From Acidimicrobiia bacterium (GTDB lineage: Bacteria; Actinomycetota; Acidimicrobiia; Spongiisociales; Spongiisociaceae), in contig WTGI01000077.1 of NCBI GenBank assembly GCA_011523635.1, positions 1,006-65,005 of the forward strand: DNA of 64,000 nucleotides. Direction: 5' to 3'. The notes beneath the pieces are model-generated. The model did no database searches and was not told the DNA's origin. It saw nothing but the letters and a program-made list of their open reading frames with translations. Position 1 is the first letter of the stretch. Every line of letters starts with the position of its first letter. Shown here piece by piece: positions 1,567 to 21,379 of the stretch. Both the position numbers and the translations under genes were made by a program.

Positions 1567-1923
1567 ATGGCAGAGCGATTCGGAGATATCCTCAGAAGGA
1601 CCCGGCAACAGGCCAAGAGGACCCTGGGTGATGTCGCGAGGCTGTTGGACGTCTCCGTGGTCTATGTATCGGACGTGGAACGCGGCAACCGCAGGCCCTT
1701 CAGCAACGAGCGTATTCTCAAAATCGCGAGGTTTCTGAAGGCTGATCCAGTACCGCTAATTGCCGCGGCGGATGTCGACAAGGGTGTCATCGAGTACAAG
1801 ATATCCAAGACAAAGCCTCTGGAGGCCAGGGTTGTCGGAGACCTTGTCAGCGGTCTGGCCCGTGGCGGAGTCACGGAAGACCAGTTGGAGAGGATCAGAA
1901 CCATCCTGAAGGACTCCGAGTAG
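1567..1923 (+). CDS. XRE-family HTH transcriptional repressor (CapH-like)
   Basis: HTH_XRE signature LGDVARLLDVSVVYVSDVERGNRRP. 118 aa. Directly followed (11 nt) by the ImmA/IrrE peptidase gene. Confidence 0.75.
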   Translation: MAERFGDILRRTRQQAKRTLGDVARLLDVSVVYVSDVERGNRRPFSNERILKIARFLKADPVPLIAAADVDKGVIEYKISKTKPLEARVVGDLVSGLARGGVTEDQLERIRTILKDSE

Positions 1924-1933
1924 GCGCCCAACG

Positions 1934-2569
1934 ATGTGGCGGGGACTAGTGGGAGCGCGTGCGGACCGCGGTTACAGCTACCGGAATCTGGAGAGGATGG
2001 CCGCCCATGTTCGCGGCCTGCTCGGCTACTCTCCGACCGAGGCGATCGATACGCTGCATCTTTTCGACGGCCTCGACATCGCGGTGGTGGATGAGACCGG
2101 CCGGGACATCCCGATACGCGGCGCCGTGATCGAACTCAACGGCTCCGAAGGGTATGCGAAGTACGACAGCAACCGCTGCGTCATCGAAATCCTGGCGTCG
2201 CCCGCTACCTACGACTGGTTGGAGAAGGGTCACCCGCGCGGCGGTTTCTTCGTTGCCCACGAGTTGGGCCACTGCCTGCTACATACCGACCAACTCGTGC
2301 GCCTGGCCCAGATGCCCAAGGCGGAGCAGGCCGCCCACCACCGAAGTGGGGAGGAGGTCGGGCACGAAGCCTACGAGGACACCGAGTGGCAGGCTAACGC
2401 CTTCGCCAGCGCCCTGCTGATGCCCGCCCAGGGACTCCAGATCCTCGGGCAGGAACACGGTGAACTCTCACCGGACATCATCGTCGAGCACTTTCACGTC
2501 TCTGCCGAAGCTGCGCGCTACCGGCTCCAACTGTACAACGACAGGAAGACGGAGTTGCTCCAGCGCTAG
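1934..2569 (+). CDS. ImmA/IrrE-family zinc metallopeptidase (DUF955, CapP-like)
   Basis: HEXXH motif in FFVAHELGHCLLH, plus conserved downstream E...ANAFASALLMP typical of ImmA/IrrE. Confidence 0.75.
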   Translation: MWRGLVGARADRGYSYRNLERMAAHVRGLLGYSPTEAIDTLHLFDGLDIAVVDETGRDIPIRGAVIELNGSEGYAKYDSNRCVIEILASPATYDWLEKGHPRGGFFVAHELGHCLLHTDQLVRLAQMPKAEQAAHHRSGEEVGHEAYEDTEWQANAFASALLMPAQGLQILGQEHGELSPDIIVEHFHVSAEAARYRLQLYNDRKTELLQR

Positions 2570-2883
2570 CCTCCAGGACGGCCATGAGACCCGCCCCACC
2601 TGCCGCCATCCCAGTCCGAGCCAGCGGGGTGTCACCGTTCCATGGCGTGACGTTACGACGTGACCTAGGCTCCGGAAGAGTTGCATCTGCTTCGACCGGC
2701 TCTTCGTCCCGCGGGACTACGGGGCGGAGGGAACACCTCGCACCGGTCGGCTAACGCCCCTTCCCCTCTCTGTCCCGTCCTCTCGTTGTCACTGAGGTCG
2801 TCCCGGAACCCTCGAAAGCGCGGCGGGTCGACCGACGCGCCATGCGGGAGGAATTGGTTTCAGGGGATACTCCGCGCAGGTCC

Positions 2884-2912
2884 TTGACAGTGTTAAGCGC
2901 ATTAGCTAACTT
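2884..2912 (+). promoter_or_regulatory. sigma70-like promoter TTGACA-N17-TAACTT with the same TTAGCTAA palindrome (2902-2909); upstream of the Ubl operon
   Basis: ttgaca(2884-2889), 17 nt, taactt(2907-2912). GCTAACT direct repeat. Hairpin cccctcggctgagggg at 2923-2938. AAGGAGG RBS before ATG 2988. Confidence 0.45.
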
Positions 2913-2987
2913 GCTAACTAACTCCCCTCGGCTGAGGGGTCGTCGGACCGAAAACAAGACCCCCGTTTCAGCGAAGGAGGCTGAATC

Positions 2988-3269
2988 ATGGTACCAGACA
3001 ACAAGCCGCAGACCATTGACGTGGAGGACCACAAGACGGTCACCATCGTCGTGGAAGGCATCCCCCACCAGTGGCCCGAGGAGTACATCACCTATGCGCA
3101 GGTGGTCACCCTCGAAGTGCCTGACTACGCCCAGCACCCGGAGATCACCTACACGGTGATCTACAAGGGAGGCCCCCGCAACAAGCCCGAAGGCACCCTC
3201 TCCAAGGGTGGCACCGTCAAGGTCGTCGAAGGAATGGTCTTCAATGTTTCAGAAACTGGCCAGTCATAA
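2988..3269 (+). CDS. multiubiquitin-domain (beta-grasp Ubl) protein
   Basis: 93 aa. ...ITYTVIYKGGPRNKPEGTLSKGGTVKVVEGMVFNVSETGQS resembles the multiubiquitin family seen in prokaryotic E1/E2 operons. Confidence 0.6.
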   Translation: MVPDNKPQTIDVEDHKTVTIVVEGIPHQWPEEYITYAQVVTLEVPDYAQHPEITYTVIYKGGPRNKPEGTLSKGGTVKVVEGMVFNVSETGQS

Positions 3270-4437
3270 TCACGACCTCCGGCGTCTGCTCGAAAAGGGC
3301 TATGCGATAGCCGTCGATAGCAATCACCTCGTCGTCCGCGACATTCCGTATCTGGACGGCGAGGGTGGCCTGCAGACGGGCGCCATCGTCGCCAAGCTGG
3401 AGTTCATCGACCAGGAGCGAGTCACCCCGACGGACCACCAAGTGTACTTCGCCGGGTCGGTACCCCACGGGTTGGGCGGAAGTCCGATCCCGAACCTGGG
3501 CGGAGGACCCACGACCATCGCCCTGAGCGAGGCCTGTAGCGATGTGGTGGTCCAGCGGTCATTCTCCAACAAGCCCAGAGCCACGGGGAAGTTCGAGGAC
3601 TTCTTCCACAAGATCGAGAGCTACGTCGCAATCATTTCAGGGCCGGCGATGGAAGCCCACAGGGCCACCCCCTACACGTTCCGGTCCGTGGACGAGGCCC
3701 CGACCGATTCGGTGTTTAAGTTCCACGACACCCTGACCACCCGGGCGGAGATCTCGGACCTGGCCGCGAAGTTCAAGGACGATGTGGTCGCCATCATTGG
3801 CCTGGGCGGTACAGGCTCGTACCTCCTGGACTTCCTGGCAAAGACGCCCGTCCGGGAGATTCGGGCGTTCGACCTGGACCCCTACCACGTACACAACGCC
3901 TTCCGGTCCCCCGGCCGGCTGGGGAAAAGTGAGTTGGGGAAGTCAAAGGCGGAGGTTTACGGCGGCCGCTACGAGAACTTCCGCACGGGCCTGTCTGTGA
4001 CCCCCGTGTTCATCGACGCGTCCTGCCGCGACGAGGTGGACGGGGTCACCTTCGCATTCGTCTGTGTCGATAAGGGTCCGTCCAGAGCGGGCATCTTCGA
4101 CCTGCTCATCTCCATGGGCATCCCCTTCATCGACGTGGGTATGGGACTGAACCGGAAGAGGGGCCCCATCAGCGGCCTGCTGCGCACCACCTACTACTCG
4201 GCGGAGCACGGGCAAGAGGTCAGGGAGAGAGACCTGGCCCCGCTAACCGATGACCCGGATGACATCTACCGGACGAACATCCAGATCAGCGAACTGAACG
4301 CCCTCAACGCATGTCTGGCGGTCGTCAGGTTCAAGCAACTCAGGGGCTTCTACTTCGAGGACGTTCCCTACCACCACCTGGTCATGGACATAGGCGACCT
4401 CAGGATGGTCGGCGAGTGTGACCTTGGCGAAGATTAG
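3244..4437 (+). CDS. E1-like ThiF/MoeB adenylyltransferase fused to an N-terminal ~190-aa domain (possibly E2-like)
   Basis: Rossmann nucleotide-binding motif VVAIIGLGGTGSYLLDFL and ThiF-like FVCVDKGPSRAGIFDLLISMGIPFIDVGMG. ATG 3244 overlaps the Mub stop by 26 nt; the ORF could also start at GTG 3208. Confidence 0.65.
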   Translation: MFQKLASHNHDLRRLLEKGYAIAVDSNHLVVRDIPYLDGEGGLQTGAIVAKLEFIDQERVTPTDHQVYFAGSVPHGLGGSPIPNLGGGPTTIALSEACSDVVVQRSFSNKPRATGKFEDFFHKIESYVAIISGPAMEAHRATPYTFRSVDEAPTDSVFKFHDTLTTRAEISDLAAKFKDDVVAIIGLGGTGSYLLDFLAKTPVREIRAFDLDPYHVHNAFRSPGRLGKSELGKSKAEVYGGRYENFRTGLSVTPVFIDASCRDEVDGVTFAFVCVDKGPSRAGIFDLLISMGIPFIDVGMGLNRKRGPISGLLRTTYYSAEHGQEVRERDLAPLTDDPDDIYRTNIQISELNALNACLAVVRFKQLRGFYFEDVPYHHLVMDIGDLRMVGECDLGED

Positions 4438-4828
4438 GCTGGAACGAGTCCACTACATGCCGCAGGAGCTAAGTCCCGGGGTGCTCTACGTCTCCGAGGA
4501 GTTCGGCACCGCGGCACACCTGTGCGCCTGCGGATGCGGCACAAAGGTCAGGACGCCCCTTGGTCCCACCGAGTGGTTCCTGGAGGAGACCGATGATGGG
4601 CCGACGCTTTGCCCATCGATCGGCAACTGGCAGCAAGCCTGCCAATCGCACTATCTGATCACAAGTGGTGAGGTGGTCTGGGCCAAGGGGTGGACCGCCG
4701 AAGAGATCGCCGACGGTCGGCGCCGTGAAGAGGCGCGCCGGCGTAAGCACTATGAAGCCCTCGACCGCAAGCACCGGAGCGTCCTGCGCAGGCTGTGGCG
4801 GTGGATCAGCAGCCTGTTCAAACGCTAG
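4418..4828 (+). CDS. DUF6527-like Cys-rich small protein (accessory of the Ubl operon)
   Basis: HLCACGCGTKV...C(x9)C cluster. Start is GTG 4418 (alternative ATG 4457). Overlaps the E1 stop by 20 nt. Confidence 0.5.
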   Translation: MTLAKIRLERVHYMPQELSPGVLYVSEEFGTAAHLCACGCGTKVRTPLGPTEWFLEETDDGPTLCPSIGNWQQACQSHYLITSGEVVWAKGWTAEEIADGRRREEARRRKHYEALDRKHRSVLRRLWRWISSLFKR

Positions 4829-5099
4829 AGCCCAGTAACCGGTTCGGAACAGGGCACGAGGGAGACCGAACCTGACAGATGAGCTACCGGGTACGGGAAG
4901 TGCAGTACGCACTGTCGCCCAAGGTCCTGCGGAGCATGCTCAAGCCCACGCCGGAACCCGCCCTACGAGCGCCTTGCTGCCACTACACCACCACCCTGCA
5001 GCACGGTAACGCACCTCGCCTTGGATGTGCCAGGCCCGGACGCCTCAACTGAATTGCAAATCACGTTCAGGCCATCAGCTACGCAGTGATGGTCGCCGC

Positions 5100-8000
5100 T
5101 CAGGTAGCGGCTAGGTCACGGATTTGTTGGACGATCCTGAAGAACTCGTCGAGGTCGGGCTTGGCGAAGATGGTTTCGGGGCCCTCGGGCGCGACGCTGG
5201 TGAATGGGGACTCGTAGATACGGCCGGGTTGGATGGTGCCGTGTTCGGTGAGGTAGTCGATGACCAGGCTGACGAAGTTGATTTGGTTGACGCTGTAGCG
5301 CTTGTCGTTGAGGAATCTGGCAAACACCCGTTTGGCGGCGGTGCGGTCGAGGCCGACAAGGGAGCGGACGAAGAGTCCGAAGCTGCCGGCACGCATGGTG
5401 GCTTCGGCGAAGGTGTCCGTATCGCCGATGCCAGCCGCGACAAGCACCCGCTGAAGGTCCTGCATGTCGGCTGCTGTGATCGGATGACCGTTGCGGACCT
5501 TGGCGACGATGTCATTGGCGAAGTGGTCTTTGAGGAATCGCTCGGCCTTTTTCTTGAATTGCTCGAAGTCGTGGCTACCAACGCTTCCGCCGATGCCTGG
5601 GAGTTCGATCTCGGTGCCTTCGCCCATCGAGTCTGTGAAATCCGAGTACAGGGGCGTCTTGTGGACGGTTTCGACAAGCTGGACAAGGTTCCGTAGGCGC
5701 TTGCGGGCATCTTCGAGCATGGGATACGTGACGTCGATCCACCACTCGTCGGTTTGGATGTCGATGATCAGTTCTAGCTGCGTGGCGACGGCGGGGATTG
5801 CCGTTCCAAGGTCTTCGAGCGCTGATGCCATGTTGATGATGCGCTTACGTTGTCGCTCGAACGGTTCGTGGCGAAGCAGGCCTAGCTGAGCATTGAGCAT
5901 GAGGACGTCGAAGCGCTTGGCCTCCTCGTTGTCGGGGTCGAGTTGATCGGGGAGCTTCGCAATCCGGTTGTTGAGATCTGCCAGGTCTTGCAGGGTGAGC
6001 GTGTCCCATGCCTCTTGGGTACGGAACCGCTCGACCAGTTCGAGATGGGGACGCACGAGAAAGTTGTACTCGTTCATCGATGCCACAGTCTCACGCAGCG
6101 TGGTGGCGATGTCGGATCGATCGTCGGCGAGAGCCTCGATGCCATCCAGGGCTTGCAGGAGTTCGACGCGGGCAGTGAACAGGATCTCGCTCAGCGGGGC
6201 CGCGCTCTTTGGATCTGCCACAGGGAGCGGCTGGCTGAAGTACTCAAGGTTGCTGCAGAAGTCGAACACGTTGAATGATGTCTTGTCGTCGCCTGGGCCG
6301 AACAGGTCCTTGCAGAGGCGGGTACCACGGCCGAGCATCTGCCAGAACTTGGTCTTGGACCTGACCATCTTGAAGAAGACAAGGTTGACGACCTCGGGTA
6401 CGTCGATGCCGGTATCGAGCATGTCAACGCTGATCGCGATGTGTGGTGCCTTGTCTCTGTTGGAGAAGTCGTCGATCAGGCTCTGTGCGTAGTTGACCTG
6501 GTGGGTGATCACCCGGGCGAAGTTGCCAGCGTCGAGCGCCGGGTAGTTGATGTCGAAACGTTCCTTGATGTAGTCGGCGTGGCGCTGGTTCTTGGCGAAG
6601 ATAATTGTCTTCCCCAGCCGGTCACCACCTGCCACCGTCACGCCTTCGGTCATGAGGTATTTCAGAACCTGGTCGACGGTGTCCTCGTTGAATAGCCACT
6701 TGTTGAGCTCGGCGGCGTTGACCTCATCTGGCGGCTCGATCGGGATGCCGTCATCATCCACGCCCCACTCGAGCTCGTCCCACTCGGCTTTCTCGTCTTC
6801 GGACAGGTCGCCGTAGCGGATGCCCTCGCGCACGAACTTCAGCGGTACCGATACTCCTCGGGGTGGGACAAGGTACCCGTCCCGGATCGCATCATCGAGC
6901 GAGTAGGCGTCGGTTGGTACTCCTGTCTCCAGATCAAACAGGTCATAGGTGTTCTTGTCGACCTCGTCCTTAGGGGTGGCAGTCAGTCCCACCAACAGCG
7001 AGTCGAAGTAGTCGAAGATGCCCCGGTACTTTCGATATACCGACCGGTGCGCTTCGTCGATCACCACCAGATCGAAATGCCCGACACCGAACCGGCGGGT
7101 GCCGTCAGACCGGTACTCATCGATCTTGCCGACCATCGTCTGGTACGTAGACACGTACACCCGTCCGTCTTCGGCGCCTTCACTGACCAGGTTCACGGGC
7201 GCCGAGTCCGGCAAGTGGGTCTTGAACGCGTTGACCGCCTGATTCACCAACGCAGTGCGATCCGCCAAGAACAGCACACGCTTCACCCAACCAGCCCGCA
7301 TCAACAGATCCACAAGGGCAATCACAGTGCGGGTCTTACCAGCGCCTGTGGCCATCACCACCAGTGCCTTACGCTGCTTGTCAACCTCGAAGTGCTCGGC
7401 AACCGCCTGGATCGCTCGCTGTTGATAGTGGCGGTCTACGATCCCCTCGCTGACATCCAAAGATGACAGTGACAACTGGCTATTCCGTCGCTGGATCAGC
7501 AGCGCCAACTCGTCGGCCGTGCAGTAGCCCTGCACCCTTCGAGCCGGATACCTCGTGTCGTCCCACAGCCAATGCTCATACCCGTTGCTGTAGAAAACGA
7601 CCGGGCGCTGTCCCGTCTCAGCCTCTAGGCAATTCGCGTACAGTTTGGCTTGCTGTTGGCCAGCCTGAGGGGCGACCGAAGTCTTCTTCGCCTCCACCAC
7701 GGCCAATGGCAACCCATCGTCGCCCCACAGCACATAGTCGACGTAGCCAACCCCCGAGACCGAAGGCATCCCCCGTACCTCGTATTCGATCTCGCATCCG
7801 TCATCAGGGTCGGCCCAGCCCGCCTCGCCTAGCAGAGCGTCTATCTTGTACCGGCGCGTTTCTGCCTCGGACCAGTCGTGCGCCCCGATCGGAATGGACT
7901 CGGCTGCCTTCTTCGCCGCCGCTACCTCAGCCCTCAACTCCCCTAACTGTGCAGCGAGCCCTTCGGCCGTTTGGTGAGGCTCCGCCAACCCATGACGGGC

Positions 8001-8510
8001 CCGCAAGCCGTTCGCGACATCCCGTCCCAGACGTTCCTCAAGATCTTGACGGGCCTTCAGTGAAGGCTTCGCTTGCCCGCCATCGCCTCGGAGAAGGCCC
8101 GGGTCGAAATGCGCCAGAGGATCGGGTTTTGTTGATCGGCCATAGGTGAAGGCCAACCACAGACAGAACTGGAACAACGCAGACACCACCTCCACAGCGT
8201 CCAGCCTCGACGGCGGCCTCGCCTTCTGCACCGCACGATCACCCGCGCGCTGAATCTTCCGAGCCCAACCGAAGACCCGACCACCGGCTAACGCCTTGAA
8301 TGCAGGTTCATTGATGCAGGCATCCAGATGATCCTCATACGGATCCGGAAGCCCACGGTCATACCGGTACATCCACCTGACACCCGACTCCAAACACTTC
8401 CTCGCATAGACCACCGCCGAGCCTGGATCCGACAACACGAGACGCTCTGCCCAACACGCCAGCCCAAACTCGACCGAGAAGTCCTCTTCGAGGAACGAGA
8501 ACTGGCTCAC
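5100..8510 (-). CDS. hsdR: Type I restriction enzyme R subunit
   Basis: SF2 helicase motifs VVMATGAGKT and DEAH-box (VVIDEAHRS). 1136 aa. 4-nt overlap with hsdS. Confidence 0.9.
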   Translation of the reverse strand: MSQFSFLEEDFSVEFGLACWAERLVLSDPGSAVVYARKCLESGVRWMYRYDRGLPDPYEDHLDACINEPAFKALAGGRVFGWARKIQRAGDRAVQKARPPSRLDAVEVVSALFQFCLWLAFTYGRSTKPDPLAHFDPGLLRGDGGQAKPSLKARQDLEERLGRDVANGLRARHGLAEPHQTAEGLAAQLGELRAEVAAAKKAAESIPIGAHDWSEAETRRYKIDALLGEAGWADPDDGCEIEYEVRGMPSVSGVGYVDYVLWGDDGLPLAVVEAKKTSVAPQAGQQQAKLYANCLEAETGQRPVVFYSNGYEHWLWDDTRYPARRVQGYCTADELALLIQRRNSQLSLSSLDVSEGIVDRHYQQRAIQAVAEHFEVDKQRKALVVMATGAGKTRTVIALVDLLMRAGWVKRVLFLADRTALVNQAVNAFKTHLPDSAPVNLVSEGAEDGRVYVSTYQTMVGKIDEYRSDGTRRFGVGHFDLVVIDEAHRSVYRKYRGIFDYFDSLLVGLTATPKDEVDKNTYDLFDLETGVPTDAYSLDDAIRDGYLVPPRGVSVPLKFVREGIRYGDLSEDEKAEWDELEWGVDDDGIPIEPPDEVNAAELNKWLFNEDTVDQVLKYLMTEGVTVAGGDRLGKTIIFAKNQRHADYIKERFDINYPALDAGNFARVITHQVNYAQSLIDDFSNRDKAPHIAISVDMLDTGIDVPEVVNLVFFKMVRSKTKFWQMLGRGTRLCKDLFGPGDDKTSFNVFDFCSNLEYFSQPLPVADPKSAAPLSEILFTARVELLQALDGIEALADDRSDIATTLRETVASMNEYNFLVRPHLELVERFRTQEAWDTLTLQDLADLNNRIAKLPDQLDPDNEEAKRFDVLMLNAQLGLLRHEPFERQRKRIINMASALEDLGTAIPAVATQLELIIDIQTDEWWIDVTYPMLEDARKRLRNLVQLVETVHKTPLYSDFTDSMGEGTEIELPGIGGSVGSHDFEQFKKKAERFLKDHFANDIVAKVRNGHPITAADMQDLQRVLVAAGIGDTDTFAEATMRAGSFGLFVRSLVGLDRTAAKRVFARFLNDKRYSVNQINFVSLVIDYLTEHGTIQPGRIYESPFTSVAPEGPETIFAKPDLDEFFRIVQQIRDLAAT

Positions 8511-9667
8511 AACTCACCCTGGAACGCACGCTGCTGTAGCGAAGCGAACAGCCTGTCGCATCGCCGGGATGAGCGATTGAGGACATCTCGCTGCCGCGCG
8601 ATCATCCTCAAGTAAGACTCGAACTGTCGCTGAAGCTTGAGCGCAGGAATCGGGATCTTGATTTCCTTGAGGATTGCTTGGTTAATCTTGTGTGTCCCGT
8701 TGGTAGTTCGCGCAGCACTCTCGATCTGACGACGAACGATTGGCGTATTCCAGACTCGACTAAGAAAGTCTCGCGAAATCAACTCAGAATCACACCGAGC
8801 AGCGATCATCGTATCAGGAAAGGCGACATCGGGGAGACTTTGTTGTGGATACTTCCCTCGCCCAACCAGAAACAGATTTCCGTTGCCACGACAAATGAGA
8901 AACAGGTCTGCTGAAACTGTCTGCTGCACGACATGAGGCCTAACAAAAGTGCTGTTCTTGACTGCATCTGGATCAAAGGACAAACCAGTAATGGCTGAAA
9001 GGGTTAGTACTCGTCCTGGGAATTCACCTGACGTTGATGGTGACACTCCATTACGCAGTGGTTTCGTCATTAATGTCTCAAACCTTACTTGTCTAAGCGT
9101 CGTTAGATTATCGAACAGGTCGGCAAACACGGCTTCGACGAATCTGTCGAGCTTGGCGAGGGCCTGGCGGCGCTTCGCTCGAAGCGCCTCAGCCGCGTCT
9201 AACACCGCTGCGATACGCCGCTGCTCCTCTAACGCCGGCAAGGAGATAGGAATGTCGGCGACGTACGATGGCCTGGCGCGAAGCAATGATCCTCCGACCC
9301 CTGCGACGGTCTGGATAAAGGCATGATGAAATCGATCGGACACCAGTACATAGCGCAAGTACGCAGGATCGAAGCGATCACTCCGGAAGATGATCCATTC
9401 GCTCGACCCGATGGCCGGCCGATCAGAGCCCAGCTCTACAACCCATGCGCGTCGAATGTGCGGGACAATCTTTGAGAGGAGGACGTCACCGCTCTCAAGC
9501 ACCTGTTTACGGGAGCCGACTTCCCTGCCACTAACGAGCTCGGGCACCTTGGCATCGAATGCTGGGATGCTGAAGAGTTCGAACTCATCATCGGGATTCT
9601 TGCGTGGATCGATGGAACGCGTTCTTGTTGACATCAGTTCACCAAGCGGTACGCTTGCGAAAGTCAT
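8507..9667 (-). CDS. hsdS: Type I RM specificity subunit with two target recognition domains
   Basis: Duplicated TRD architecture with conserved spacer helices (LPALEEQRRIAAVLD ... IPIPALKLQRQFESYL). Overlaps hsdM and hsdR by 4 nt each. Confidence 0.8.
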   Translation of the reverse strand: MTFASVPLGELMSTRTRSIDPRKNPDDEFELFSIPAFDAKVPELVSGREVGSRKQVLESGDVLLSKIVPHIRRAWVVELGSDRPAIGSSEWIIFRSDRFDPAYLRYVLVSDRFHHAFIQTVAGVGGSLLRARPSYVADIPISLPALEEQRRIAAVLDAAEALRAKRRQALAKLDRFVEAVFADLFDNLTTLRQVRFETLMTKPLRNGVSPSTSGEFPGRVLTLSAITGLSFDPDAVKNSTFVRPHVVQQTVSADLFLICRGNGNLFLVGRGKYPQQSLPDVAFPDTMIAARCDSELISRDFLSRVWNTPIVRRQIESAARTTNGTHKINQAILKEIKIPIPALKLQRQFESYLRMIARQRDVLNRSSRRCDRLFASLQQRAFQGEL

Positions 9668-11232
9668 GCCAACATTGCCTTAAGTTCGTCGACGCCTCTT
9701 AGGATTTCTGTCTCCAGGGCTGTGAGTTCGTCGAGGATCTGGGTTGGCGGTGGGTATTCGATTTCGTTGTAGATGATTTCTTTGTAGCGGTTGATGCTGA
9801 GGTCGTAGGCGTTGCTCACGATGTCGGACTTGGGTATGCAGAAGGACTGCTCGGTGCGGACACGTGACATCTCCGTAGTGGTGCGTTTCTGCCAGCGGGC
9901 GAGAACGTCGGGTAGGTTGTTCTTCTCATGCTCTTCATCGGTCAGCTCCCCCTCCGTGAGTACGCCGAGTTTGGCCTCGTCAAGTAGCGGGATGCGCTTG
10001 TCGTCGAGGCTGTAGCCGTCAGCCTCCAAGTCATAAAACCAGACATGGTCGGTGCCGCCAGAGTTGGTCTTGGTGAACAGCAGGATGGCGGTAGAGACCC
10101 CGGCGTAGGGTTTGAACACGCCGGATGGGAGCGAGACGATGCCCTCGAGCTTCTGGTCTTCAACCAGAATACGGCGAAGCTCTTTGTGAGCCTTGGTCGA
10201 GCCGAAGAGTATCCCATCGGGCACAATCACCGCCGCTCTTCCACCGGGTTTGAGGAGTCGCAAGAACAGTGTGAGAAACAGCAGTTCGGTCTTCTTGGTC
10301 TTGACGACCTTCAGGAGGTCCTTCGCTGTGCTCTCGTAGTCGAGCGAGCCTGCGAAGGGCGGGTTGGCCAGGATCAGGCTGTAGGACTCCGTGCCTCCGG
10401 CGTGGTCCTGGGCTAGGGAGTCCCGGTAGCTGATGTTGGGGTTCTGGACTCCGTGGAGCTGCATGTTCATCGACCCGATCCGGAGCATCGTGTTGTCGAA
10501 GTCATAGCCGGTGAACATCGTGCTGTGGAAATGTCGTGCCTTGACTGGGTCGGTCAACGCGATCGGATGTCGGTCACGGATGTGTTCGCCAGCCGCTACT
10601 AGGAACCCGCACGTCCCGCTTGCGGGATCGCAGATAGTGTCGTCTGGTTGGGGGGCGACCATTTCGACCATCAGCCGGATGATGTGGCGCGGGGTACGGA
10701 ACTGGCCGTTTTGCCCGGCTCTGGCGATCTTGGAGAGCATGTACTCGTAGACGTCACCCTTTGTGTCGCGGTCTGTCATCGGGATCGAGTCGAGACCGTC
10801 CACTGCCTTCTGCAGCAGCCCAGGGGTGGGGATCGTGAGACGGGCACCGCGCATGTGTTTGGCGTGAGTGCTCTCCTCCGCCCGCTGGTGCAGGAACGGG
10901 AAGACGTATCTCTCGACTACCTCGAACATGTCGGCCGCGGACATGTGCTTGAACCTCGACCAGCGAAGGTCACTGTACGGTCGGCCGTTGATGAGCCCTT
11001 CAGGCAGGAATTGTTGGCCCTTAGGGAAGATGACCACATCGATCGGCTGGCCGGTTCGGTTCGCTTTGTTCTCGGCGAGTGTCTGGCGTTCGTCGAGGGC
11101 CTTGATGAACAGCAGATAGGTGAGTTGCTCTATCACCTCGAGCGGGTTGGATATGCCACCCGACCAGAAGCTGTGCCAGACAGCGTCGATCTTGTTTCTG
11201 ACCTCACCGGTGAGCATTGGTTCCCACTTCAT
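9664..11232 (-). CDS. hsdM: Type I RM N6-adenine DNA methyltransferase
   Basis: HsdM N-terminal domain, motif I (DPASGTCGFL) and motif IV (NPPF in LILANPPFAGS). Confidence 0.9.
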   Translation of the reverse strand: MKWEPMLTGEVRNKIDAVWHSFWSGGISNPLEVIEQLTYLLFIKALDERQTLAENKANRTGQPIDVVIFPKGQQFLPEGLINGRPYSDLRWSRFKHMSAADMFEVVERYVFPFLHQRAEESTHAKHMRGARLTIPTPGLLQKAVDGLDSIPMTDRDTKGDVYEYMLSKIARAGQNGQFRTPRHIIRLMVEMVAPQPDDTICDPASGTCGFLVAAGEHIRDRHPIALTDPVKARHFHSTMFTGYDFDNTMLRIGSMNMQLHGVQNPNISYRDSLAQDHAGGTESYSLILANPPFAGSLDYESTAKDLLKVVKTKKTELLFLTLFLRLLKPGGRAAVIVPDGILFGSTKAHKELRRILVEDQKLEGIVSLPSGVFKPYAGVSTAILLFTKTNSGGTDHVWFYDLEADGYSLDDKRIPLLDEAKLGVLTEGELTDEEHEKNNLPDVLARWQKRTTTEMSRVRTEQSFCIPKSDIVSNAYDLSINRYKEIIYNEIEYPPPTQILDELTALETEILRGVDELKAMLA

Positions 11233-13432
11233 TCTCCGTTTCGATCATCGCGTTCCTCAAACTGAGGATGCCGGCCACGAGGCCTTCGCGGACCGTATCG
11301 TAGGTGGTGCGGCAAGCTTCGAGTGTCTCGTCGAATTGGGACATCTGCGTCTCGATAGCGGTCAGACAGGCGACGAGGGCTTTCTGTTCTTCGAGGGCTG
11401 GCAGGTGAACTTCGATGTCTTTGAGCGTGTCATGCCTTAGGTTGGCGATGACACTTCCTGTGGCAGCTCCTGCGAGGGCTGCTCTCCCCCGCCTGGATGT
11501 CAGATACAGCCTCAGGTAGTCAGGATCCAAGCGTCTCTGGTCAGGTCGGAGTCTGATCAGCCAGTTCGAGAACGATGCAGGAACATCGAATCTGACTATG
11601 GCGCACGCTACAGATCTGTGGCCATCGATCCCACGCGTCACAAGTAGGAGATCCCCTCGTCGGACCATCCGACCTCGAACATGGCCGAACGTGGACTCAG
11701 CAGGAACGTTGGCCAGGATCGGCTGTCCCTGGATAACCATTCCGGTTGTGACGTACGGCGTCGGATCGCCTTCGCCGCCTTCACGTTGCCGTATGCCAGG
11801 CAACGGATCAGTGATCAACAAGTCACCCAGGCGGTGATGCGAGAAACTTGGGCCATCCACCGGGTCGATTGCCGAGAGTTGCTGCCGGATCGTAGCCTCA
11901 ACTGTCGGGAGAGCCGCCAGACGCTCCTTGACGGTCGTTGTGAGACGTTTCTGCCGGGACCGGATCGGCTCACCGTTGATCTCCGTGATCTTCACCGCGT
12001 ACTGGATGTAGCGACTAGGGCCCAGTGCGCTGCCGTTTGCAACAATCTCGTCGGTGGTGCCGATGCCGCTGAACTGAGCTTCGGGTTCCAGCCGTCCGTC
12101 ACGCCACCGCTGTATCGTCCGTCCGATCTTGACTATCTCGGGTGGCTGGAAGCTACGCACTCCCCCTCTCTCGGGCGTTCCGAGTTGACGAGCATCGAGA
12201 AACAGAACCCTCCCGGCACGATTCACTCGGTCCTTCTGCAGAACCAAGATCGCAGTGGGTATAGACACCGACGTGAGCATCCCCGGCGGGAGGTAGAGGA
12301 CAGCATCCACGTAGTCGGCCTCTAACAGTCCCGTCCGGATTATGACCTCGGAGCGGCCACGTCTCGTCAAAGCGGTGGTCGGGAGCACAACAACTCCGAT
12401 ACCGGAGTCGGCGAGGTGGAACACAACGTGCTGAACCCAAGCAAGGTCAGCGTGCCCCTTCGGAGGTAACCCTAAGAACCACCGGGGATCACCGTCCATC
12501 TGCTCGACCGAGGCGAGACGGAGACCGAACGGAGGTTCGACAGCGATGCGGTCGGCTCTCAACTGCCAGAGACGATCATCGACCATCGTGTCACCGGTCA
12601 CGAGCTGGAAGGACGCGCCCTGCAACAGCAGGTGGAGGAACCCGAGCCTCCAGGTCTGCTCCCTGATCTCTTGACCATAGAGTTGGGTCACCGTATCCGA
12701 ATAGCGTTCCCATGTCGATCCCAGGAAGACAGCTCTGCCACAAGCTGGGTCGTAGACAGTTCCCTCAAGAGGTTCGAGCAAGGCTGTCATGATGTCGACA
12801 AGGCTTGGCCCACTATCGACGTTGCCCGCCTTAGCCCCACGACGCTTGGCGAAGTCTTCGAGGAGGACTGTTGAGGCATCCCCCCAGTCGGTTGAGCGGG
12901 GGTGGAAGTGACCAACAGTTTCGATCAGTCGAGTCCAGTCTGAAGGCCGCAACTGGCTCACAACAGACGACACCCTCAGCGCCCTAGCGAGGTCGGGGTC
13001 CGACATGGTCAGAGCGTCGGCGGTCGAGGAATACACCAGTCCGGGGTCGTTTGCTGCTTCGATCCGGCCCCAGGCACGTGCGAGCGGAGTCAGACGCTCG
13101 TATCGACCGGAAGCTGCCGCGCGCAGGGCGAATAGTTGCAGCAGGACCTCCGGAGTGTCGAACACACCGGGGAGATCGCGCACTGCATACGTAGCCTGTA
13201 ACACCGCACTCTCGATCGAGTCCTGTTCTGGAAGGTGGACACTCTTGCCCGCGGCTCGAAGCCACGCCACGATCTGAGCCCGGTCGAAGAGTCCTTCCTC
13301 AGCTTCTGTCGGGAAGTCCGGGTGGCGACGCTTCCAGTTCGACACCGCAGACGGTCTAACCCCAGCGAGTCTTGCGATCTCGGCACCTGTGATCAGGATC
13401 GGAGTTGATGGGTTTGTATCTGGGACCGTCAT
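11204..13432 (-). CDS. HTH + gamma-class N6-adenine MTase + TRD fusion protein (second, non-canonical M/S polypeptide)
   Basis: N-terminal HTH (ILITGAEIARLAGVRPSAVSNWKRRHPDFP). Motif I (YDPACGRAVFLG) and motif IV (VEPPFG). C-terminal HsdS-like TRD with LPALEEQKALV helix. First gene body of the operon after the NYN gene. Confidence 0.75.
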   Translation of the reverse strand: MTVPDTNPSTPILITGAEIARLAGVRPSAVSNWKRRHPDFPTEAEEGLFDRAQIVAWLRAAGKSVHLPEQDSIESAVLQATYAVRDLPGVFDTPEVLLQLFALRAAASGRYERLTPLARAWGRIEAANDPGLVYSSTADALTMSDPDLARALRVSSVVSQLRPSDWTRLIETVGHFHPRSTDWGDASTVLLEDFAKRRGAKAGNVDSGPSLVDIMTALLEPLEGTVYDPACGRAVFLGSTWERYSDTVTQLYGQEIREQTWRLGFLHLLLQGASFQLVTGDTMVDDRLWQLRADRIAVEPPFGLRLASVEQMDGDPRWFLGLPPKGHADLAWVQHVVFHLADSGIGVVVLPTTALTRRGRSEVIIRTGLLEADYVDAVLYLPPGMLTSVSIPTAILVLQKDRVNRAGRVLFLDARQLGTPERGGVRSFQPPEIVKIGRTIQRWRDGRLEPEAQFSGIGTTDEIVANGSALGPSRYIQYAVKITEINGEPIRSRQKRLTTTVKERLAALPTVEATIRQQLSAIDPVDGPSFSHHRLGDLLITDPLPGIRQREGGEGDPTPYVTTGMVIQGQPILANVPAESTFGHVRGRMVRRGDLLLVTRGIDGHRSVACAIVRFDVPASFSNWLIRLRPDQRRLDPDYLRLYLTSRRGRAALAGAATGSVIANLRHDTLKDIEVHLPALEEQKALVACLTAIETQMSQFDETLEACRTTYDTVREGLVAGILSLRNAMIETENEVGTNAHR

Positions 13433-14049
13433 GCCGCCACCTCCGGGGGTGCAAGATTGGGTAGGAGCCGCACGAACGTAGCGGCATTCGCAAGTCCACT
13501 CGAGAGGCTTCGCCCGCGTGATACCACCCCGACAGGCAGCCCGTGCGATCGGAATCTCGTGACCATCTCTTCGAAGATGCCGTCGCCCGATCCGATAATG
13601 ATTTGGTCATACCGTTCAGCTATGAAGCGGTCATCGTTCACCCAAGCCAGCAACGCAAGATCGGCTCCGTCCGGACCTCGACCTGACAGGACCCTGGGCG
13701 ATGGCCATGCGGCTTTGGTGATGGGGAGAAGTGCCGGATTGACAGCAACCACCACGTGATCTCCGTCGACCACCGAGGCTCCAGCCTTATAGAGGGCAAT
13801 GGCCTGGAGGAGCATGTGAGTACCCGTCCACGGACCACCCATCAGGTTCTCCAGGTCGACCAGATGCAGGGTCCGACCGGGGGGAACGTGCTGGGCCCGA
13901 GGGAAACGTCGCGGCGAAACCGCGTATAGGTGCGCGTAGCGCCGCCGCACGTCTCGGCTGTGAACAGTGCCTCTGAGTGGTTTGTGACTTAGAGTCATAA
14001 GGTTGACACTAGCGGGTCGCCCCACCGCTGTCAAGTGACTTCCATTCAC
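13429..14049 (-). CDS. NYN/LabA-like (PIN-fold) domain protein
   Basis: LHLVDLENL...GGP and ...QIIIGSGDGIFEEMV match the NYN acidic-residue pattern. 4-nt overlap with the MTase-TRD gene. Start is GTG 14049 or ATG 13998. Confidence 0.55.
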   Translation of the reverse strand: MNGSHLTAVGRPASVNLMTLSHKPLRGTVHSRDVRRRYAHLYAVSPRRFPRAQHVPPGRTLHLVDLENLMGGPWTGTHMLLQAIALYKAGASVVDGDHVVVAVNPALLPITKAAWPSPRVLSGRGPDGADLALLAWVNDDRFIAERYDQIIIGSGDGIFEEMVTRFRSHGLPVGVVSRGRSLSSGLANAATFVRLLPNLAPPEVAA

Positions 14050-14104
14050 ACTTCACCAGAACGGAAGACCGTCTCTCCAAATGGTCGCCCATAGCATCAT
14101 CGAA

Positions 14105-14152
14105 GCTGTGGGCCCGGCAGGACTCGAACCTGCACCCAACGGATTATGAGTC
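14105..14152. repeat. Direct repeat of the 3' end of tRNA-Met (att-site duplication)
   Basis: 14109-14152 tgggcccggcaggactcgaacctgcacccaacggattatgagtc matches 21306-21349 (1 mismatch) plus shared gctg flank, same orientation. Partner is the full tRNA at 21306-21379. Confidence 0.7.
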
Positions 14153-14818
14153 GGCATAAAACCCCAGCTAAAGTATAGTTTTCAGGTCAGTCCCATTCGA
14201 CTGACCCACAGGACACTAGGCATGGGCGGAGCCTTTCCCAGCAGAAACGCCAAGGCGCCCTCGGACTCCGCCCAGCCCGTCACATCCAGCCCCATAGTGG
14301 CACCCGGTGCTGGCGGCCGGCCTCATCCGCTCGCCGAGAATCGCGCACAACGGTGTCAAGGTCGACTTCGGCCCAGACCGCTCCGATCACCTCCCTGAGC
14401 GAACCGCTGTGACTATGGCGAACGATACGGCGAAGTACAGCTTCCGATGGACCGTTGATTGTCGGATCTGCTCTGGGCCATACGGAGACGTTGGGGATTT
14501 CCATAGCAAGCTCGGAGGTGTCCTGGCTCCCCGTTGTTTCGGCAGCGCGGTCAACGCGTCGCCTGCTTGGTTGTCGCGGCGGTATCCTGGGCGACGGCTA
14601 TTCCATGACGGCCGCGATAAGTGGCTGTACTCGTTTGGCTGTCGCCGGGCTGCTGTTCCTCGGGGCGAGGTGCGGTGGCAGTCGCAGATGAGTACCGACG
14701 TTTCCTGACTCGGAGGGCTGGGCTCGCTCTGTGCCTGAAGGCCGGCCAACCGGAATCGTGCTGGAGCACATCGCCATTCCTTGTGACTGATCGGCTCGAT
14801 GACAGATGGCCGTTGGCG

Positions 14819-21109: not shown

Positions 21110-21305
21110 TAGAGGTTGATCGAGAAGACTCCGTCAACGCACAGCTCAACATTGCGGCCTCGATGTTGGTCCTTCGGAGCGCTTGGTGACAACCAGTTCG
21201 GACGGGTAGATCCTGCACAATCTGCTGGTGGGCGAGAGCCAGAACCCGCCTCTGACCTTGGAGCTTAAGTAGCTATGAAACAGTTAGCGACTAGTAGAAA
21301 CGCTG

Positions 21306-21379
21306 TGGGCCCGGCAGGACTCGAACCTGCAACCAACGGATTATGAGTCCGCTGCTCTGACCGCTTGAGCTACGGGCCC
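21306..21379 (-). tRNA. tRNA-Met (anticodon CAT), 74 nt, CCA not encoded
   Basis: Cloverleaf folded by hand: acceptor gggcccg/cgggccc, D stem gctc/gagc, anticodon stem gcgga/tccgt with loop ctCATaa, T stem gcagg/cctgc with ttcgagt loop. Confidence 0.9.

Follow-up and report, generated by a model that had tools for sequence, protein, structure and literature searches.

A conserved NYN-domain and methylase-like gene pair at the head of Type I restriction operons: a candidate guard or decoy module

Background

What are two additional genes doing at the head of an otherwise canonical Type I restriction-modification (RM) operon? The question is raised by a 64,000-nucleotide stretch of DNA from an Acidimicrobiia bacterium (contig WTGI01000077.1; hereafter, the window), in which hsdM, hsdS and hsdR are preceded by a gene for a small protein of predicted NYN fold and by a second gene whose 742-residue product, here termed M*, joins a predicted helix-turn-helix (HTH) region, a methyltransferase (MTase) domain of the HsdM type and a single target recognition domain (TRD). 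The original prediction, made from the sequence of the window, viewed the larger protein as a Type IIG/ISP-like enzyme combining modification and specificity functions, with the NYN protein as its missing cutter; an orphan second modification activity, or a toxin-like or regulatory component, was offered as a fallback. The comparisons reported here favour the toxin-like or regulatory direction of that fallback and retain extra modification only as a rival. By analogy with the Ronin and PrrC systems, the two genes may constitute an autoregulated guard or decoy for Type I systems, a reading to which we assign a probability of roughly 40%.

Type I enzymes are among the commonest defences of bacteria, and DNA-mimic proteins are a routine means by which phages and plasmids disable them. 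To our knowledge, few back-up devices that punish such disarmament have been described (PrrC, Ronin, PARIS and some retrons), almost all of them in Escherichia coli. The gene pair considered here would represent a conserved candidate for such a device, found in at least 40 independent loci from several phyla and composed of parts unlike those of the known devices. If the proposed function is correct, the pair would be the first case in which an NYN-fold effector, and a sensor derived from a naturally "dead" methylase, are linked to restriction systems.

Conservation of the NYN-M* gene pair

The five genes of the window are minus-strand, co-directional and overlapping open reading frames (ORFs; Table 1), and were recovered with exactly the ends that had been predicted for them. 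In gene order, the junction overlaps measure 4 nt (ATGA), 14 or 29 nt, 4 nt and 4 nt, the two values at the second junction depending on the choice of the hsdM ATG (11217 or 11232, respectively). The two extra genes are thus operonically joined to hsdMSR and, as originally proposed, they are the part of interest; the comparative data identify them, in addition, as a conserved module.

Loci were gathered by similarity to the NYN protein and annotated by crude ORF calling in combination with home-made hidden Markov models. Searching genomes and metagenomes with the alignment of the NYN family yielded 159 further loci. The NYN stop codon lies no more than a few bases from the start of an HTH-methylase gene in 40 of the 133 informative loci, and such a gene follows directly downstream of 12 of the 14 NYN genes whose products are closest to that of the window. 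Metagenome contigs identical to the window carry the exact 742-residue protein together with its neighbours, and M* orthologues of 39-63% identity retain both the NYN gene directly upstream and the 4-nt overlap in three different settings. The pair is accompanied by a different Type I family in locus L002, lies beside an opposite-strand neighbour in L003, and stands without any Type I system nearby in a metagenome-assembled genome (MAG) of Candidatus Spongiisociaceae (L001); the module occurs without an adjoining Type I system in L003, L034 and L063 as well. The sequence identities of the NYN and M* partners co-vary (Spearman 0.52, for 849 non-independent pairs). In six loci (L011, L026, L029, L039, L057 and L068) the M* fusion is split into an HTH-methylase of about 520-540 residues and a single-TRD gene product of about 195-226 residues. 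The hosts belong to the Actinomycetota, Gemmatimonadota and Chloroflexota. Taken together, these sequence comparisons point to NYN and M* as a conserved, separately inherited accessory module.

On the Rhodococcus plasmid pNSL1, an NYN gene is followed by genes for proteins of 529 and 199 residues. This pair was considered as a split M* and TRD and was rejected; its sizes fit, but it has no similarity to either component.

Association with Type I systems of several families

The relationship between the module and the restriction genes was assessed in the 25 non-redundant linked loci that extend at least 5 kb downstream. A second, canonical methylase gene follows the module in 18 of them and a same-strand hsdR in 19, and the module and the Type I genes are mostly separated by less than 100 nt or overlap. 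The HsdR proteins behind the module are of several families, including EcoR124_C, T1RH-like_C (HindI-like) and EcoEI_R_C. In two loci (L026 and L042), the restriction genes are close to those of the window (76% identity for HsdM and 70-73% for HsdR), whereas the NYN and M* proteins are only 38-43% and 25-28% identical, respectively. The high identity of the one part and the low identity of the other indicate that the module and the Type I system have separate histories, and the two appear, from these sequences, to have become associated repeatedly.

The same five-gene layout is found on plasmids of cultured strains, namely p48A of Corynebacterium glutamicum, pJCM12272 of Mycolicibacterium alvei and pDK2035-69 of Dietzia kunjamensis, where the genes are annotated in order as NYN domain-containing protein, N-6 DNA methylase, class I SAM-dependent DNA methyltransferase, S and R. 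In p48A (L172; NZ_CP014329.1, 34621-43356) the layout directly adjoins repA. Plasmid pJCM19266a of C. atrinae carries the NYN-M* pair followed by insertion sequence elements. The presence of the five genes on plasmids of cultured strains makes the readings discussed below testable, and p48A, in a genetically tractable species, would be a handy experimental model.

The TRD of M* behaves differently from those of the resident specificity subunit. Among members of the M* family, identity to the window in the TRD core tracks or exceeds identity in the MTase domain (72% versus 78%, 62% versus 68%, and 52-54% versus 39-40%). The neighbouring canonical system served as a control: its HsdS shares only 28-30% identity with the HsdS of loci in which identity is 76% for HsdM and 70-73% for HsdR. 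As judged from these alignments, the TRD of M*, unlike HsdS, does not diversify.

M* resembles a fusion of Type I subunits

The domain architecture of M* (Table 1) was delineated in an AlphaFold2 (AF2) model with a mean confidence score (pLDDT) of 86.2. In Pfam, N6_Mtase matches residues 183-478 (E = 3e-51) and Methylase_S matches more weakly; the PADLOC model MTase_I and several Specificity_I models also match the protein. The predicted HsdS-like TRD is real, being matched by Methylase_S, by PADLOC Specificity_I and by HsdS chains in the sequence search of the PDB. The predicted N-terminal HTH received support from the structural model and none from Pfam, in which no HTH family was detected (best E = 0.0076, with sub-threshold matches at residues 13-43). 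In the AF2 model, residues 13-60 adopt a strand-helix-helix-strand-helix arrangement (pLDDT 80-89), and in the family alignment the A19-W33 segment and R36 of this region are near-invariant.

The PDB neighbours of M*, by sequence profile and by fold, are M and S subunits of Type I enzymes (3KHK, PacII M1, EcoR124 M and 1YF2), together with the fused Vibrio vulnificus methyltransferase 7EEW, which was crystallised with Ocr. PacII M1 is the best structural match. Type IIG enzymes are far from M*; BpuSI ranked 14th in the fold search, with a TMq of 0.35. No nuclease or helicase domain was found in the 742 residues by Pfam, by PADLOC or in the AF2 model. On its sequence and fold neighbours and the lack of a fused nuclease domain, the Type IIG/ISP frame was rejected; M* is a Type I-derived fusion of M and half of S, with an added HTH, and not a Type IIG enzyme minus its nuclease.

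A copy of a half-site of the resident HsdS within M*, which would imply a reader of the Type I mark, was likewise considered and rejected, the M* TRD sharing 31% identity with one HsdS TRD and 25% with the other; such values suggest likeness at the family level and not shared specificity.

A further reading is that M* is an additional active methylase, either of orphan specificity or as a partner of HsdM and HsdS, and that NYN is an unrelated, co-transcribed RNA-processing enzyme. Type I operons with two different HsdM-type genes are indeed on record, as are M-S fusions and M proteins with an extra half-TRD (PMC5100572, PMC9613975, and the PacII structures), and NYN genes have repeatedly been found in association with methyltransferase genes elsewhere (PMC5499597). 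In the M1M2S systems represented by PacII, however, M1 and M2 are about 45% identical, carry NPPF and NPPY, and share one HsdS, whereas M* is 20% identical to the neighbouring HsdM over 249 residues, carries EPPF, possesses its own TRD and HTH, and has an NYN gene alongside. Two loci, in a Candidatus Palauibacter MAG (L011:12742-19907) and a Gaiellales MAG (L046:12185-14943), contain the module followed by one HsdM with NPPF and another with NPPY. Their Type I systems thus appear to be of the M1M2S kind for N6-methyladenine (m6A) and N4-methylcytosine, with three methylase-type genes in a row, and M1 and M2 are already present there besides M*. These loci, the low identity to HsdM and the separate TRD led us to reject the M1M2S heterodimer frame for M*. 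The erosion of its motif IV (see below) and a pairing with NYN that is too consistent to be incidental further reduce the case for extra modification, which we regard as the least probable of the explanations considered here.

Erosion of the methylase motifs

The original description of M* as a complete gamma-class MTase with motifs I and IV could not be upheld. Its motif IV reads EPPF and not (N/D)PP(F/Y/W), and its motif I lacks the second Gly of the Gly-rich loop; motif II (GQE) is intact. Within the consensus DPACGxA(V/M)FL of motif I, the second Gly is lost in the subfamily of the window and kept in others.

Motif IV was read from alignments and by regular expressions. The 25 full-length M* orthologues display EPPF, EPPL, DPPL, QPPI, EAPL or DPPF, and the NYN-linked methylases of genomes, metagenomes and plasmids add HPPL, HPPF, DGPM, DTPL, DAPF, DPPM, DPPY and DPPW. 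The first residue of the motif is never Asn in the NYN-linked HTH-methylases, with the exception of L019 and L024 (NPPF), in each of which the protein is the sole M of its operon. By comparison, the second methylases downstream of the module always carry NPPF or NPPY. Such a mosaic is the pattern expected where catalysis is dispensable in a family; catalysis in M* looks dispensable, and the naturally occurring erosion of motif IV agrees with a function that is independent of it. METTL14, with EPPL, is the classic non-catalytic methylase partner. The M* family would in this respect offer a natural series for the transition from methylase to pseudoenzyme.

These findings bear directly on the notion of a split restriction enzyme. 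A motif IV that is degenerate on alignment had been named beforehand as the observation that would speak against it, and this is largely what was seen, with EPPF in the window and wide variants among the orthologues. A methylase that was the sole self-protection of the cell could not bear such erosion, which leaves the split-restriction reading unsupported; the Type I neighbours and the static TRD of M* also argue against NYN as its missing cutter. In a broader form, the pair could still be an independent second restriction system, with M* an active methylase of fixed specificity, NYN its nuclease, and the adjacency to Type I genes a product of clustering in defence islands. The two genes are tightly coupled in translation by their 4-nt overlap and are found as a stand-alone pair; in addition, EPPF has persisted across distant relatives, motif IV of some members reads DPPY, DPPF or DPPW, and motifs I and II are for the most part intact. 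Orthologues in which motif IV has lost its aromatic residue or a proline (DGPM, DTPL, DAPF, EAPL, QPPI and DPPL) would, however, be lethal if M* were the only protection. Moreover, the same-strand and often overlapping or closely spaced (<100 nt) link to Type I genes of several HsdR families, in 18-19 of the 25 loci, exceeds what island clustering would give, the TRD does not diversify, and the nearest structures to the NYN protein are of proteins that we take to be RNA-related (see below). We therefore consider a second restriction system unlikely.

Motif IV variants are also common in other HTH-methylases of actinomycetes. Many proteins of Streptomyces, Micromonospora, Nonomuraea and Thermomonospora (P0048-P0120) carry variants such as HPPF, EPPV, EPPL, DPPV, DPPA or APPY, and a large share of the "N-6 DNA methylase" annotations in this group may be non-catalytic. 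The M* genes are themselves annotated under this name, and methylome and REBASE-style predictions would therefore wrongly expect a second m6A motif.

The NYN protein

The first gene was predicted to encode an NYN/PIN-fold protein of 206 residues. The fold was confirmed in an AF2 model built on the family alignment (pLDDT 87.6); its top PDB neighbours in Foldseek are the NYN domain of MARF1 (6FDL and 5YAA) and the LabA-like protein 2QIP (probability 1.00, TMt 0.60-0.66). We take both of these to be RNA-related proteins and not restriction enzymes. The length is another matter: the gene probably starts at ATG 13998 and encodes 189 residues. The longer form appears too long because homologues, of about 182-189 residues, begin at the position of ATG 13998 and because a promoter-like element, TTGACA-17-TAGTGT, sits within the 5' extension.

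By sequence alone the assignment is less apparent. The Pfam NYN family (PF01936) scored 22.6 bits, below its cutoff of 24.2, and covered only residues 145-193, the C-terminal third; many homologues have a precomputed PF01936 match. A single weak match (E = 0.005), to a LabA-like model, was obtained with PADLOC and NCBIfam. In the database search the family comprises compact proteins of about 180-190 residues (278 matches), and it extends to 2,174 clusters at E<=1e-3 among 1.84 billion representative proteins. An alignment of 30 sequences contains the motifs LHLVDxENL, GPDGAD and GSGDG and the invariant residues D60, E62, N63, D92, N99, D125 and D151 (P0121 numbering). From their place in the motifs, the invariant acidic residues may be equated with NYN catalytic positions; the active site thus appears to be under selection, and nuclease activity is predicted. 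No NYN-like homologues were found among 50,697 phage records.

The view that all NYN-like homologues are linked to defence was rejected, as remote members (35-43% identity) adjoin two-component, PafC/WYL, PCMT-methyltransferase and metabolic genes. In two Streptosporangiaceae MAGs (L054:10523-11809 and L056:10499-11785), a remote homologue is followed by a PCMT-type (protein-isoaspartate-like) methyltransferase and not by a DNA methylase. Close homologues also occur in two copies per region with no adjoining methylase, as in L008 (3536-4171 and 9899-10480) and in L010 and L012, which are from the same Acidimicrobiia genome and lie 12.5 kb apart; a Schlafen/AlbA_2-HATPase_c_4 protein and a ParA-like ATPase are encoded near one of the L008 copies. 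This distribution suggests that the NYN gene also moves with other mobile or defence contexts.

Promoter and operator-like palindromes

The promoter-like element ends 7 nt before ATG 13998, and the NYN mRNA is therefore probably leaderless. Two 15-bp palindromes of the form GTGA-N7-TCAC, 51 nt apart, bracket this promoter in the window. In orthologous loci the palindrome pair recurs at a fixed spacing of 50-51 nt beside TTGACA, and the GTCAC half-site encodes the conserved "SH" at NYN residues 4-5. When palindromes were counted with one mismatch allowed, at least one was present in 23 of the 40 methylase-linked loci versus 14 of the 96 unlinked loci, and at least two in 10 of 40 versus 1 of 96. 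The HTH of M* is the only one in the module, and is the obvious candidate to bind these sites.

The promoter-like element was found by eye and is backed by the comparison with orthologous loci. A generic promoter and terminator scan of positions 4700-14500 yielded nothing above shuffled sequences and no internal terminators; the scan requires at least 4 of 6 matches to TATAAT, and TAGTGT, with 3 of 6, was accordingly not listed.

C proteins and HTH-bearing Type II methylases act as repressors of restriction operons. The arrangement in the window would also suit a pure control module, in which transcription of the Type I operon is governed by the HTH-methylase-like protein and NYN trims or degrades the polycistronic mRNA, thereby setting the ratio or timing of restriction versus modification, with no suicide involved. 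The palindromes bracket the promoter, cover the first start codon and keep their spacing, and the NYN-M* pair is always at the operon head. Two HTH-bearing N6_Mtase paralogues without NYN occupy the same place, their genes closely preceding complete Type I operons in Streptomyces spectabilis (CP040916; L086:8001-18130, motif IV NPPY) and in a Micromonospora sp. (L088:8001-16983, motif IV HPPF). There is also a precedent in RptR, a dedicated repressor of Type I-embedded islands (PMC12255303), which, like the C proteins, has an HTH at the operon head and repeated or palindromic promoter sites. RptR and C proteins are nevertheless small and stand-alone, whereas here the HTH, whose binding is predicted, is fused to a full M and TRD scaffold. 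A scaffold of 700 residues with a conserved TRD far exceeds the needs of a repressor, and the pair also occurs in loci without a Type I system. Furthermore, one type of module is found with unrelated Type I families, and one Type I family with very different module subfamilies. A role confined to control of the operon is, in our estimate, the most probable of the rival readings, although still unlikely.

In the Streptomyces operon of L086, hsdS and hsdR are separated by genes for an AAA_21 ATPase and a DUF4276 protein.

Proposed function of the module

The guard or decoy reading may be formulated as follows: (i) M* would dimerise through its single TRD and long C-terminal helix, to form a look-alike of the Type I methylase core (M2S). 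(ii) Its winged HTH, bound to the paired GTGAA-N5-TCAC palindromes, would repress the module itself and the read-through into hsdMSR. (iii) The co-translated NYN nuclease would be kept inactive by M*. (iv) A phage or plasmid agent directed against Type I enzymes, e.g., a DNA-mimic anti-restriction protein, would also strike the M* look-alike. (v) NYN would then be released or derepressed and would degrade nucleic acid, most likely RNA, such that the infected cell is stopped. The V. vulnificus methylase, a fused M and single-TRD protein of Type I-like character that was crystallised with the DNA mimic Ocr (7EEW), provides a structural precedent for the decoy. The more general proposal, that NYN and the HTH-pseudo-methylase form a widespread decoy-immunity device of the Actinomycetota and neighbouring phyla, in which the eroded methylase core baits anti-restriction proteins and thereby frees or derepresses the NYN ribonuclease to shut down the cell, is tentative and on balance doubtful.

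Several points weigh against the guard or decoy. We infer that NYN and M* make contact, that M* dimerises and that the HTH binds the operators, and likewise the nature of the trigger and substrate and an abortive outcome; the toxicity of NYN and the anti-restriction trigger are proposals made by analogy. EPPF is kept from the genome of the window to the Corynebacterium, Mycolicibacterium and Dietzia plasmids and, in view of this recurrence, could be a working variant; other family members carry DPPY, DPPF or DPPW, and the S-adenosylmethionine-binding motif II is kept throughout the family. Part of the M* family, possibly including the protein of the window, may thus still methylate. The NYN-less HTH-methylases that head Type I operons imply a methylase-like role that does without NYN, which the regulatory reading fits equally well. 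Remote NYN-like homologues occur in housekeeping-looking contexts, and the fold alone is no sign of a toxin. Finally, loci entered the sample through their similarity to NYN and through crude ORF calling, and linked loci differ from unlinked ones in taxonomy and perhaps also in base composition.

Comparison with known systems

In Ronin, an HsdMS complex holds a small toxic effector in check; the methylase activity of the complex is dispensable, as F287G in the NPPF motif of HsdM does not abolish function, and anti-restriction proteins are proposed to set the system off (Silas et al., bioRxiv 10.1101/2023.04.06.535777). In both Ronin and the module described here, the effector gene closely precedes M and S components of the Type I kind that have no dedicated HsdR, and both are attached to other systems, restriction or BREX in the case of Ronin and Type I in the present case. 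The upstream non-coding region of Ronin is essential, and anti-restriction proteins are the proposed trigger of both. The two differ in four respects. RonA is a 61-residue membrane peptide, as opposed to a soluble 189-residue candidate effector of the NYN fold, and homology between the two is not expected; M and the single TRD are usually fused here, with an N-terminal HTH; motif IV is canonical in Ronin and naturally eroded here; and Ronin is from E. coli, whereas the module is found in the Actinomycetota, Gemmatimonadota and Chloroflexota. Ronin may be viewed as the closest known logic, from which the present module departs in its effector and in having a pseudo-methylase of its own.

PrrC-EcoprrI also contains a nuclease gene within a Type I operon. 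Its anticodon nuclease is reportedly kept silent by the Type Ic restriction complex and set free once the latter is inhibited by a phage. PrrC, however, is of the ABC-ATPase type, is encoded between hsdS and hsdR, and has an active enzyme as its partner, whereas the nuclease considered here is of the NYN fold, comes first in the operon and is accompanied by its own methylase look-alike. The fused methylase of V. vulnificus YJ016 (7EEW) shares with M* an HsdM-type domain and one TRD in a single chain, and it binds a DNA-mimic protein; unlike M*, it has no HTH, and we know of no NYN partner for it.

None of the named systems in the PADLOC and NCBIfam libraries fits the five genes, which match only the generic Type I methylase, specificity and restriction models; the MADS and BREX models scored far below their cutoffs. 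Our searches of the literature on NYN together with restriction-modification, Type I systems or abortive infection retrieved no description of an NYN-Type I coupling or of a family of HTH-pseudo-HsdM proteins. A survey of the PIN superfamily in 2017 lists a few VapC-type PIN genes coupled to Type I subunits, which are not of the NYN family considered here, and states that no PIN-like restriction module had been shown. The genes are already in public records under generic names, and the arrangement itself is apparently undescribed.

The Type I genes and their genomic setting

The original assignment of hsdM, hsdS and hsdR as canonical agrees with their Pfam and PADLOC domain content. HsdM matches HsdM_N (4e-12) and N6_Mtase (3e-57) in Pfam, and PADLOC MTase_I (PDLC03021) over its full length (5e-185). 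HsdS matches PADLOC Specificity_I (PDLC03069; 7e-74) at residues 4-386, for a profile of 387 positions, and TRD models match both of its halves. HsdR contains the Pfam domains HSDR_N, ResIII, Helicase_C and EcoEI_R_C and matches PADLOC REase_I (4e-172); its matches to the NCBIfam models PRK11448 and restrict_EcoAI are below the cutoffs of those models. By this content, the three genes (5100-11232) are assigned to a canonical Type I system that is EcoAI/EcoEI-like (Type IB-like).

Table 1. Features of the operon and its surroundings. Positions refer to the window, or to residues (aa) of M* where indicated.
Feature	Position	Strand	Description
hsdR	5100..8510	-	1136 aa; HSDR_N nuclease, superfamily 2 (SF2) motor, EcoEI_R_C
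hsdS	8507..9667	-	386 aa; two TRDs
hsdM	9664..11232	-	522 aa, or 517 aa from ATG 11217; motif IV NPPF
M*	11204..13432	-	742 aa; winged HTH, HsdM_N-like region, HsdM-type MTase, single TRD, long helix
M* motif IV, EPPF (aa 299-302)	12527..12538	-	not canonical NPPF/NPPY/DPPY
M* motif I region, DPACGRAVF (aa 228-236)	12725..12751	-	second Gly of Gly-rich loop replaced
M* winged HTH	aa 13-60		AF2 model
M* helical HsdM_N-like region	aa 73-174		AF2 model
M* HsdM-type MTase fold	aa 183-520		AF2 model
M* single TRD	aa 531-677		AF2 model
M* C-terminal coiled-coil helix, 40 residues	aa 680-719		AF2 model
Predicted NYN-fold nuclease gene	13429..13998	-	probably 189 aa from ATG 13998; mechanical ORF (13429-14049) runs to GTG 14049 (206 aa)
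Operator-like palindrome 2, ATGACTCTAAGTCAC	13984..13998	-	covers NYN start codon
Promoter-like element, TTGACA (14034-14029), 17-nt spacer, TAGTGT (14011-14006)	14006..14034	-	read from sequence
Operator-like palindrome 1, GTGAATGGAAGTCAC	14035..14049	-	abuts -35 element
Att-like direct repeat of tRNA-Met 3' part	14105..14152	-	48 nt, one mismatch, 7.2 kb from the tRNA; context, not part of the module
tRNA-Met (anticodon CAT)	21305-21379	-	

The RM block lies within a defence hot spot at tRNA-Met, a setting in keeping with the guard or decoy reading. Att-like repeats bracket a 7-kb island, the boundary between the island and the RM block being the repeat listed in Table 1, and the NYN promoter begins about 55 nt beyond it. 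The island encodes a 1043-residue DUF4365 protein (with an N-terminal domain like PADLOC Aga_REase-PNTD), a 295-residue unknown protein, a 401-residue DnaJ-domain protein and a 305-residue Hypoth_Ymh protein; no integrase is recognisable in it. The surroundings of the NYN-M* pair in the Candidatus Spongiisociaceae MAG are similar: MS-channel and Usp genes lie upstream, and the pair adjoins an integrase fragment.

At the opposite end of the operon, immediately beyond hsdR, the plus strand (1567-4828) encodes an HTH_3 regulator, a Peptidase_M78 protein (PADLOC capP, 6e-15), Multi_ubiq, a DUF6791-ThiF E1-like protein and DUF6527/BubE. By its gene content, this region is a predicted Bub-type ubiquitin-like conjugation operon with CapH/CapP-like regulators.

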